64,000 nucleotides of DNA, taken from contig CAXHJY010001022.1 in NCBI GenBank assembly GCA_964016885.1, positions 9,520-73,519 of the forward strand, given 5' to 3'. A program made the translations under genes and the position numbers. The notes beneath the pieces are model-generated. The model searched no databases. It had not been told where the DNA came from and saw nothing but the letters and a program-made list of their open reading frames with translations. Source of the stretch: Eledone cirrhosa. Taxonomy: Eukaryota. This document shows, piece after piece, positions 14,258 to 16,886 of the stretch. How positions within the stretch are numbered: the first letter of the stretch is position 1; each line of letters opens with the position of its first letter.

Positions 14258-14634
14258 GTATGTATATATGTATATATGTAATAGAATGAAACGAAATTTC
14301 ATTTCTCATTCTTAGTACGGCACTTACTTAAATGTAAGTATGTATGTATACGTACATACATATATGTATACAGACGTACAGTAGTCTGTATGTATATATA
14401 TACATGCTACTGTACGTCTGTATACATATATGTATGTACGTATACATACTTACATTTAAGTAAGTGCCGTACTAAGAGTGAGAAATGAAATTTCGTTTCA
14501 TTCTATTCCATTTATCGTCTTCGGTGCGCCTGGTCGACTGATCTCACTCGATATGCAAATTAGGCTGCTCAGCCGTTAATTTTCATAAGGAGAGTATATA
14601 CTTTCGGACGTTCAACCATCTGGCAGAAAGGTAT

Positions 14635-14677
14635 ACGGTGCTGACGATAGCTAATAAGCTTGAAACTAGTACATCGT
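14635..14677 (+). ncRNA. Type I hammerhead ribozyme, intact
   Basis: acggtg-CTGACGA-tagct aata agctt-GAA-actagt-A-catcgt. Confidence 0.88.
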
Positions 14678-15518
14678 TCCTGTGTCAGTGTTGAACAAAA
14701 AGGTGACGTGGTTGCCTAAATACTGTACGGCGTTATTCAGGCTGCTTGTTTGTTTACAAACGAACAAACCGAGCATTATAATAAATGTTCGGTAGACTGA
14801 TACGTGCATATATATATGTGTACCTGTATGTATATATATACATGCTACTGTACGTCTGTATACATATATGTATGTACGTATACATACATACTTACATTTA
14901 AGTAAGTGCCGTACTAAGAGTGAGAATTGAAATTTAGTTTTATTCTATTCCATTCATCGTTTTAGGTGCGCCTGGCCGACTGAACTCACTCGATATGCAA
15001 ATTAGGCTGCTCAGCCGTTAATTGTCATAAGGAAAGTATATACTTTCGGACGTTCAACCATCTGGCAGAAAGGTATACGGTGCTGGCGATAGCTAATAAG
15101 CTTGAATATTGAACATCGTTCCTGTGTCAGTGTTGAACAAAAAGGTGACGTGGTTGACTAAACACTATACGGCGTAATTAAGGCTGTTTGTTTCTTTACA
15201 AACGAACAAACCGAGCATTATAATAAAAGTTTCGTAAACTGATACGTGCATATATATATGTGTGCTTGTATGTATATATATACATGCTACTGAACGTCTG
15301 TATACATATATGTATGTACGTATACATACATACTTACATTTAAGTAAGTGCCGTAATAAGAGTGAGAAATGAAATTTCGTTTCATTCTATTCCATTCATC
15401 GTTTTAGGTGCGCCTGGCCAGCTGAACTCACTCGATATGCAAATTAGGCTGCTGAGCCGTTAATTTTCATAAGGAAAGTATATACTTTCGGAAGTTCAAC
15501 CATCTGGCAGAAATGTAT

Positions 15519-15561
15519 ACGGTGCTGACGATAGCTAATAAGCTTGAAACTAGTACATCGT
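15519..15561 (+). ncRNA. Type I hammerhead ribozyme, intact
   Basis: Same sequence as 14635-14677. Confidence 0.88.
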
Positions 15562-16112
15562 TCCTGTGTCAGTGTTGAACAAAAAGGTGACGTAGTTGCC
15601 TAAACACTGTACGGCGTAATTCAGGCTGTTTGTTTGTTTACAAACGAACAAACCGAGCAATATAATAAAATTTCGGTAAACTGATACGTGCATATATATA
15701 TGTGTGCCTGTATGTATATATATACATGCTACTGTACGTCTGTATACATATATGTATGTACGTATACATACATACTTACATTTAAGTAAGTGCCGTACTA
15801 AGAGTGAGAAATGAAATTTCGTTTCATTCTATTCCATTTATCGTTTTCGGTGCGCCTGGCCGACTGAACTCACTCGATATACAAATTAGGCTGCTCAGCC
15901 GTTAATTTTCATCAGGAAAGTATATACTTTCGGACGTTTAACCATCTGGCAGAAAGGTATAAGTTGCTGACGATAGCTAATAAGCTTAAAACTAGTACAT
16001 CGTTCCTGTGTCAGTGTTGAACAAAAAGGTGACGTGGTTGACTAAACACTGTACGGCGTAATTCAGGCTGTTTGTTTACAAACGAACAAACCGAGCATTA
16101 TAATAAATGTTC

Positions 16113-16301
16113 AAGGGCGGTGGATTGGCAGTATCGGTAGAGGGTCGGACGCCATGCTTTGACGCATAGAGTTACGGCCCTTGCCATTCTGAGTTCAAAT
16201 CCCGCCGAGGTTAACTTTGCCTTTCATCCTTACGGGGTCGATAAAATAAAGTACCAGTAATACACTGGGTAATTTCTGGCCTTGTGCCAAACGTAGAAAC
16301 A
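16113..16301 (+). mobile_element. Full-length tRNA-derived SINE with 16-bp target-site duplication (TSD)
   Basis: A box tggcagtatcgg, B box gagttcaaatccc. TSD attataataaatgttc at 16097-16112 and 16302-16317. Confidence 0.92.
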
Positions 16302-16886
16302 ATTATAATAAATGTTCGGTAAACTGATACGTGCATATATATATGTGTGCCTGTATGTATATATATACATGCTACTGTACGTTTGTATACATATATGTAT
16401 GTACGTATACATACATACTTACATTTAAGTAAGTGCCGTAATAAGAGTGAGAAATGAAATTTCGTTTCATTCTATTCCATTTATCGTTTCGGTGCATCTG
16501 GCCGACTGAACTCACTCGATATGCAAATTAGGCTGCTCAGCCGTTAATTTTCATAAGGAGAGTATATACTTTCGGACGTTCAACCATCTGGCAGAAAGGT
16601 ATATGCTGCTGACGATAGCTAATAAGCTTGAAACTAATACATCGTTCCTGTGTCAGTGTTGAACAAAAAGGTGTCGTGGTTGCCTAAACACTGTACGGCG
16701 TAATTCAGGCTGTTTGTTTGTTTACAAACGAACAAACCGGGCATTATAATAAATGTTCGGTAAACTGATACGTGCATATATATATGTGTGCCTGTATGTA
16801 TATATATACATGCTACTGTACATCTGTATACATATGTGTATTTACGTATACATACATACTTACATTTATGTATATATATTTATGTA

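Follow-up and report, generated by a model that had tools for sequence, protein, structure and literature searches.

Near the left end of a 64,000-nt stretch of the Eledone cirrhosa genome (contig CAXHJY010001022.1, positions 9,520 to 73,519; hereafter the window), a 442-bp sequence is repeated in tandem and carries a hammerhead-like motif in successive units. The locus raises the question of whether such a repeat grew in place as a satellite or was copied there as a mobile element and, if it was copied, what the ribozyme and the copying enzyme each contribute.

Anatomy of the array and its predicted ribozyme

The window array consists of two arms arranged head to head between (TA)n tracts. 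A short inverted arm (14272-14404, minus strand), whose outer (3') end is the long end, at site B (monomer position 286), follows the left tract (14170-14271). It is joined to a forward arm (14386-16867, plus strand) of approximately 5.2 units of 442 bp, whose outer end is the short end, at site A (monomer position 229), and the junction between the arms sits inside a TA-rich palindrome of the monomer. The array therefore has one end of each type (B+A). The right tract (16868-17077) also flanks the 3' end of a Penelope-like element on the minus strand (17078-17309). Tandem repeat analysis (TRF) gives a period of 442 bp and 3.9 copies up to a later 189-nt insertion (16113-16301, plus strand), which we take to be SINE-like from its Pol III box-like motifs; it is flanked by 16-bp target duplications (16097-16112 and 16302-16317) and interrupts hammerhead unit 4 of the array. 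The monomer has a GC content of 34%, the array contains no ORF of at least 150 aa, and a search for an RT plus GIY-YIG ORF found none inside the repeat.

Two further loci in the window carry related sequence. At the left edge (1-410, plus strand), another two-armed insertion, this one belonging to the 466-type subfamily, is represented by its right part; the insertion begins 229 nt left of the window (locus L201) and ends at site A in (TA)n, and the copy has 85% identity to unit 1. A sister family with a 469-bp unit occupies 50820-54121, ambiguously as one or two insertions, and comprises a plus arm ending at site A (51711-54121), a minus arm ending at site B (51223-51703) and an additional minus piece ending at A (50820-51176). 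A near-intact LINE (RVT_1; 54331-57501, plus strand) lies immediately to the right of this array. Tracts rich in (TA)n, of 1.2-2.8 kb, adjoin retroelement ends at 411-2609, 48017-50819 and 62755-64000.

Five units of the forward arm contain the motif, with predicted cuts after 14671, 15113, 15555, 15997 and 16639, and the copy at 1-410 has a predicted cut after 159. The type I order of core elements (CUGANGA, GAAA and UH) is present in units 1, 3 and 5 and in the sixth copy, and is broken in units 2 and 4. All five are on the plus strand. The core of unit 1 (14626-14681) is intact, with a U·U at positions 10.1:11.1; unit 2 (15068-15123) carries A6G, A15.1U and U16.1A; unit 3 (15510-15565) has an intact core and lacks one G-C pair in the distal helix of stem I; unit 4 (15952-16007) has G12A plus two stem I mismatches; and in unit 5 (16594-16649) the core is intact, the stem III palindrome is broken (ACUAAU) and stem I has one mismatch. 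The first-pass annotation had listed five units and a further copy at 1-407, with units 1 and 3 intact, 2 and 4 mutated in the core and 5 partly damaged, and had placed the cut after GUA at 14671. In a unit-by-unit check of the sequence the number of units, their damage and the cut position all proved correct, the sixth copy extending to 410. The hammerhead string it gave describes a real motif and leaves out the U·U at the base of stem II, and its reading of the array overlooked both the inverted arm and the SINE-like insert.

Stem II reads U-AGCU-AAYA-AGCU-U, so that positions 10.1 and 11.1 form a U·U mismatch and the usual G10.1-C11.1 pair is absent from the 442 lineage; variant L091 has C-G. 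At L091 1489-1544 and L165 1590-1645 (both minus strand) we observed C-G or C·A, not U·U. Rfam hammerhead models gave no match in the region, either at the gathering score or at E up to 5, returning only TA-hairpin miRNA noise, and the hammerhead assignment is therefore based on core nucleotides and pairing. In local folding the inner stem I pairs of unit 1 have probabilities of only 0.14-0.21, and a crude energy test gives -26.2 kcal/mol for the dimer versus -9.4 kcal/mol for two monomers. We class the motif as a type I hammerhead that is predicted to cut itself; the U·U and the inner stem I probabilities count against activity, as does a published test in which only one of nine predicted retrozyme dimers cleaved. 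The window array has no two consecutive units with complete hammerheads, the property by which Li et al. call arrays active, whereas other arrays of the 442 lineage have runs of intact matches.

Comparable hammerheads are described in amphibians. As far as the accessible text of PMC7229834 goes, axolotl HHR_Amex1 likewise has a one-pair helix III with a palindromic tetraloop, and cleaves efficiently only as a dimer, and HHR_Amex2 likewise has a U·U at the base of helix II. The 6-bp helix I of our motif also occurs in HHR_Amex1, HHR_Amex2 and the newt satellite 2 hammerhead, and the axolotl and newt hammerheads with such a helix III are reported to cleave efficiently only as dimers (accessible parts of PMC7229834; PMC4209133). 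The 442 lineage combines both weakening traits, the Amex1-type helix III and the Amex2-type U·U, whereas the 469 lineage has G-C at 10.1:11.1.

Kinship and dispersal of the 442-bp and 469-bp lineages

The 442 and 469 monomers share 225 of 361 aligned positions (62%, E 1e-21) and can also be aligned end to end in a multiple alignment. Among 12 ribozyme variants aligned without gaps, ACUAGU is invariant (12/12 rows, all of which had been found via this motif), and the AAYA loop, the UA bulge and the distal AGG/CCU helix, candidate elements of a tertiary contact between loop 2 and helix I, are kept in both lineages. Seven of the 15 ribozyme pairs change on both sides (3/6 in helix I and 4/5 in helix II), and 92.8% of alignment cells pair, versus at most 51%, with at most three double-changed pairs, when the partners are slid; because the 12 rows are related, these counts are descriptive and do not amount to a probability. 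Outside the ribozyme, monomers folded singly as circles have 49-70 pairs in common, and in six comparisons 12-14 of these changed on both sides, whereas 60 controls averaged 1.4 such changes and never exceeded 5. Predicted self-pairing of the circular monomer stands out from shuffled sequence (30 shuffles each), with z of -7.1 and -4.9 for two 442 monomers and -9.7 for a 469 monomer, and in the predicted folds of both lineages a long stem joins the monomer's two ends.

These observations support descent of the 442 and 469 lineages from a common ancestor with structural selection along the whole monomer. Much of this had been anticipated: the annotation had described an ACUAGU stem III and AGG/UCCU context common to both families, which the alignment of 12 variants bears out, and stems I and II that differ in sequence and still pair, which agrees with the compensatory changes in 7/15 pairs. 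Its proposal of one ancestral ribozyme RNA diversifying under structural selection is upheld by the 62% identity over 361 nt and by shared folds inside and outside the ribozyme, with a significant alignment (E 1e-21) and double-sided changes beyond those of the controls. It had further called the 442-bp family the older one, which is right for this array, whose units are 93-96% alike versus 98.5-99.1% in the window 469 array, and wrong for the lineage. Identity between adjacent units is 99.8% in the 466-538-bp subfamily (5 arrays) versus 99.7% in the 469 type (14 arrays). Since this subfamily belongs to the 442 lineage and is as young as the 469 type, both lineages were active recently; the window 442 units differ by 1-4% from the family majority.

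Across the 3.0-Gb genome, a 31-mer from the ribozyme of the 442 lineage has 15,427 exact matches and a 32-mer from that of the 469 family has 5,010. A loose pattern covering both families, GCTGANGA-N13-15-GAAACTAG, matches 40,059 times versus twice for a reversed control, and the hammerhead pattern is thus not due to chance. The earlier label of satellite is misleading, since the repeat is dispersed as short retrotransposed insertions across many chromosomes, and the annotation had named neither a retrozyme nor a Penelope-type insertion. Monomer size ranges across the family from 421 to 538 bp, and young arrays consist of near-identical units, up to 31 of them consecutive. The 31-unit arm (C1:5738328-5752442; L162, L163) is built from a 466-bp unit, ends at A and lies head to head with a short B-ended arm. 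At L036, a 310-bp hammerhead repeat with a head-to-head layout (~2060-2960) adjoins an insertion of the 442 lineage.

The top-conserved block outside the ribozyme common to both families is a hairpin (14552-14587, plus strand), the 5' strand of which contains ATGCAAAT. For newt satellite 2 an snRNA-type promoter is cited in the accessible part of PMC2220036, and the conserved ATGCAAAT provided a lead to an internal promoter of this type. We rejected this candidate: none of eight U3 genes and none of four U2 genes has the exact octamer upstream, and no promoter-like match of U3 upstream regions to the monomer was better than shuffles. Thus, a counterpart of the newt promoter in the 442 repeat finds no support, and the motif is also one strand of the conserved hairpin. 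The U2 and U3 genes examined (L202-L213) have little common sequence at the expected proximal element.

Paired ends of the insertions and the route of copying

We classified arm ends in two samples, the first comprising 93 fetched stretches and the window and the second 51 further stretches, from loci that were selected for an intact ribozyme and that come for the most part from the first 58 Mb of a single chromosome. Ends within 8 nt of a site were assigned to A or B. The outer ends proved to be fixed, with 67 at A, 67 at B and 3 elsewhere in the first sample (137 ends) and 33, 35 and 12, respectively, in the second (80 ends), where (TA)n follows 59 of the 68 A or B ends; the inner ends of the arms are variable. 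The spacing of the two sites, which occupy homologous places in both lineages, is 56-59 nt for the 442 lineage and 69-70 nt for the 469 lineage, and site A falls in the loop of a conserved hairpin.

The two types of end are also paired. Among 51 head-to-head pairs, 34 are A+B, 2 are A+A, 1 is B+B and 14 have an unclassed end, and 28 further pairs comprise 17 A+B, 1 A+A and 10 that are unclassed or cut off. Pooled, A+B accounts for 51/55 classifiable pairs (p 1e-11 versus independent choice), leaving four exceptions, while 24/79 pairs are unclassable. An anchor method gave 36 A+B, 1 A+A and 2 other among 39 pairs; it scored the window 469 array as A+A after running across an internal TA tract, and we kept this array as an exception. 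Partner arms have a mean identity of 97.7%, versus a median of 93% to other loci, and the partner is the best match in 16/38.

The insertions therefore carry a Penelope-type signature, namely an inverted 5'-truncated copy, a one-sided tail, two fixed 3' ends and a (TA)n target. Insertions of endonuclease-bearing Penelope-like elements similarly have microsatellite targets including (TA)n, 5' truncation, an adjoining inverted copy and a tail at one end, according to the accessible parts of PMC8557442 and PMC3846280; their tails measure 30-40 nt there, versus 57-70 nt in our repeat. In vitro, two internal start sites delimit the Penelope tail, and both DNA strands undergo cleavage and extension (PMC11167929, in part). 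Unlike Penelope-like elements, the repeat has no ORF and its arms are multimers of a short unit. The near-strict A+B pairing also differs from the in vitro study, the accessible part of which reports no start-site difference between strands (PMC11167929). Taken together, the window array is very probably a two-armed and partly decayed non-LTR retrozyme insertion, likely copied by a Penelope-like RT/endonuclease that would have primed from both DNA ends at two fixed RNA sites.

The steps by which such an insertion could arise may be outlined as follows. The arrays would be transcribed, and two neighbouring hammerheads would associate through their ACUAGU palindromes and cleave in dimeric form, as expected because helix III is one pair with a palindromic loop, like the axolotl and newt motifs, and the crude energy favours the dimer. 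The long stem I extension could then hold the two ends of the monomer side by side so that ligation closes a circle, a step suggested by the stem that joins these ends in both lineages and by the circles that related elements form. A Penelope-like RT/endonuclease would prime from both DNA ends of a cut (TA)n tract, at sites A and B, and would read through the cut site in copying its template, either the circle or an uncut multimer. Microhomology or a palindrome may have served to join the two cDNAs at their truncated ends. A linear cut-to-cut monomer is probably not the usual template, because 80/102 arms cross the cut site (about half of them forced to do so by the sampling) and arm 5' ends fall exactly at the cut in 11 cases versus 12 at one control position. 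Nine of these 11 are true junctions, the cut-site set being the only one inspected, and we rejected an in vivo cleavage footprint at arm starts, since the same counts reveal no enrichment. The window array would afterwards have decayed by approximately 3% and gained its SINE-like insert.

More tentatively, and with less than an even chance in our estimation, a dimeric Penelope-like protein could prime opposite ends of one break with its two halves, at two obligatorily paired sites of one RNA, and roll round a retrozyme circle to yield arrays of up to 31 units. If this were true, the insertions would be direct genomic evidence for the machinery that spreads animal retrozymes. Obligatory A/B pairing, if true, would be an asymmetry unseen in the only in vitro Penelope study, and the genome has both young templates and open ORFs of possible partners.

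A credible alternative, if on balance a doubtful one, keeps the same element and enzyme and changes one step only: the template would be an uncut multimeric transcript, so that spread needs neither the hammerhead nor a rolling circle. It accords with the lack of excess 5' ends at the cut and, from the accessible part of PMC11167929, with an Anolis Penelope protein that uses unprocessed RNA in vitro and with ribozyme mutants that insert normally. Six rare variants are moreover each common to two units of the window array, where a rough estimate expects about two, which makes it likely that some units exchanged sequence once inserted or that the template was a multimer. However, the hammerhead and the end-joining stem are kept with compensatory changes in both lineages, near-identical units in young arrays, up to 31 in a row, are expected from one circle, and circles accumulate in related retrozymes (PMC7229834, in part).

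It is unlikely that the inverted arm arose by fold-back self-priming of one strand instead of priming from both DNA ends. Fold-back has been proposed for Penelope elements (PMC3846280, in part), and it would suit about 8 of the 51 pairs, in which the inner ends lie no more than 6 nt apart at a palindrome, as well as the window junction, which is also palindromic. In the remaining pairs, however, tens to hundreds of bases separate the positions of the two inner ends, and 7/51 pairs consist of arms that cannot have been copied from one another. The longer arm is A in 26 pairs and B in 25, equally often, and fold-back leaves the stop at exactly the other site unexplained. For most insertions, therefore, fold-back is the less favoured route.

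Penelope-like families and comparison with known retrozymes

Two fixed ends, again in (TA)n, are likewise seen in three coding Penelope-like families of the window, with spacings of 78, 101 and 142 nt. Long-plus-short pairs are numerous in the families with 78-nt and 142-nt spacing, and the 101-nt family shows only a few ends. The 142-nt family, with RT and GIY-YIG domains, is found on the minus strand at 8227-10582 and 11404-11865 (genome copies L219-L247) and has many open ORFs of ~780-784 aa in the genome, with 98-99% identity. The GIY-YIG match of these RT/GIY-YIG ORFs is slightly below the Pfam cut-off, and their Atlas neighbours have GIY-YIG/RVT_1. By eye only, the window RT/GIY-YIG ORFs resemble the Hydra-clade element Hydra-1_Obim in N-terminal and RT motifs, and that element also prefers (TA)n (PMC8557442, in part). 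The 142-nt family carries a hammerhead-like motif whose stem II is very long (~7620-7735, minus strand). The 101-nt family has a compact hammerhead and occurs at 34548 (-), 36193 (+), 40787 (+) and 17078-17309 (-). The 78-nt family is represented by 57807-60587 (-), 2609-2812 and 4676-6785; small head-to-head pairs of its 3' stubs are very frequent, and we saw no canonical hammerhead in this family.

The A-B region of the repeat has no match above shuffled scores to four Penelope-like termini in the window. By tblastn of 93 of the 144 fetched stretches, RT, endonuclease or LINE pieces were detected in 23, none of them consistently linked to the arms, and a protein search for a partner element returned just the query's own family. 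Since none of the four termini matches and no ORF is consistently linked to the arms, the repeat appears to be non-autonomous. Some arms abut Penelope-like endonuclease-coding sequence immediately, without an intervening TA tract (L075 ~2779; L057 ~5100 and 6965). The two chimeric junctions are suggestive as a lead to the partner, and they could be deletions or re-mobilised neighbours.

These two direct junctions, like the published homology of Xenopus retrozymes to Penelope termini, would also suit an origin of the units as terminal repeats (pseudo-LTRs) shed by an as yet unfound autonomous Penelope-like element. We regard such an origin as quite improbable, since long arms continue into more units and not into an ORF, the window Penelope-like families have different hammerheads and termini, and the coding pieces detected by tblastn are not consistently linked to the arms. 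Least probable is local growth of a classical satellite through unequal exchange, its ribozyme being incidental or dead. In its favour, the layout is tandem, three of five units are damaged and units show signs of exchange. It is nevertheless contradicted by the end census, which reveals dispersed copies with inverted arms whose outer ends are fixed and lie in (TA)n, and the compensatory changes in ribozyme and folds also speak against it.

As a presumed non-LTR retrozyme, the repeat fits this class on all sequence features tested, save for two consecutive intact ribozymes in the window array. Metazoan non-LTR retrozymes, as described in the accessible parts of PMC7229834 and 10.64898/2026.07.22.740005, are likewise non-coding tandem repeats in which GC content is below 50%, each unit has a single type I hammerhead and copy number is very high, with two related families within one genome, a predicted self-paired monomer and co-existing Penelope-like elements. 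The monomers here (421-538 bp) are above the 170-400 nt given by Cervera and de la Pena (2020; PMC7229834) and within the 51-972 bp of Li, Clavereau and Pollet (2026; 10.64898/2026.07.22.740005). For published retrozymes, expression and circles have been demonstrated (same sources). Fixed paired ends are not described for retrozymes in the accessible text of either source, and a search of the openly accessible literature found no paper that deals with this family or reports paired ends for retrozymes.

Penelope-like helpers for retrozymes were proposed earlier from common traits, co-occurrence and terminal homology (10.64898/2026.07.22.740005; PMC7229834; both in part). Here, the Penelope signature can be counted: the insertions have two fixed ends, pair A with B in 51/55 and use the targets that the coding families beside them also use. 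The class of element, the type of ribozyme and the layout all have published precedents, so the repeat is a further example that permits a more exacting test and does not establish a new kind of element. Lineages only 62% alike retain the same two sites and fold, thus naming RNA features for in vitro mutation.

Other hammerhead-like motifs also occur in the window. One type with a 12-bp stem II is found at 22607 (-), 25485 (+) and 46585 (-), in the last case directly after a truncated endonuclease-coding piece. Another CUGAUGA...GAAA motif family, which falls outside the type I descriptor, is present at 22127 (-) and at several loci.
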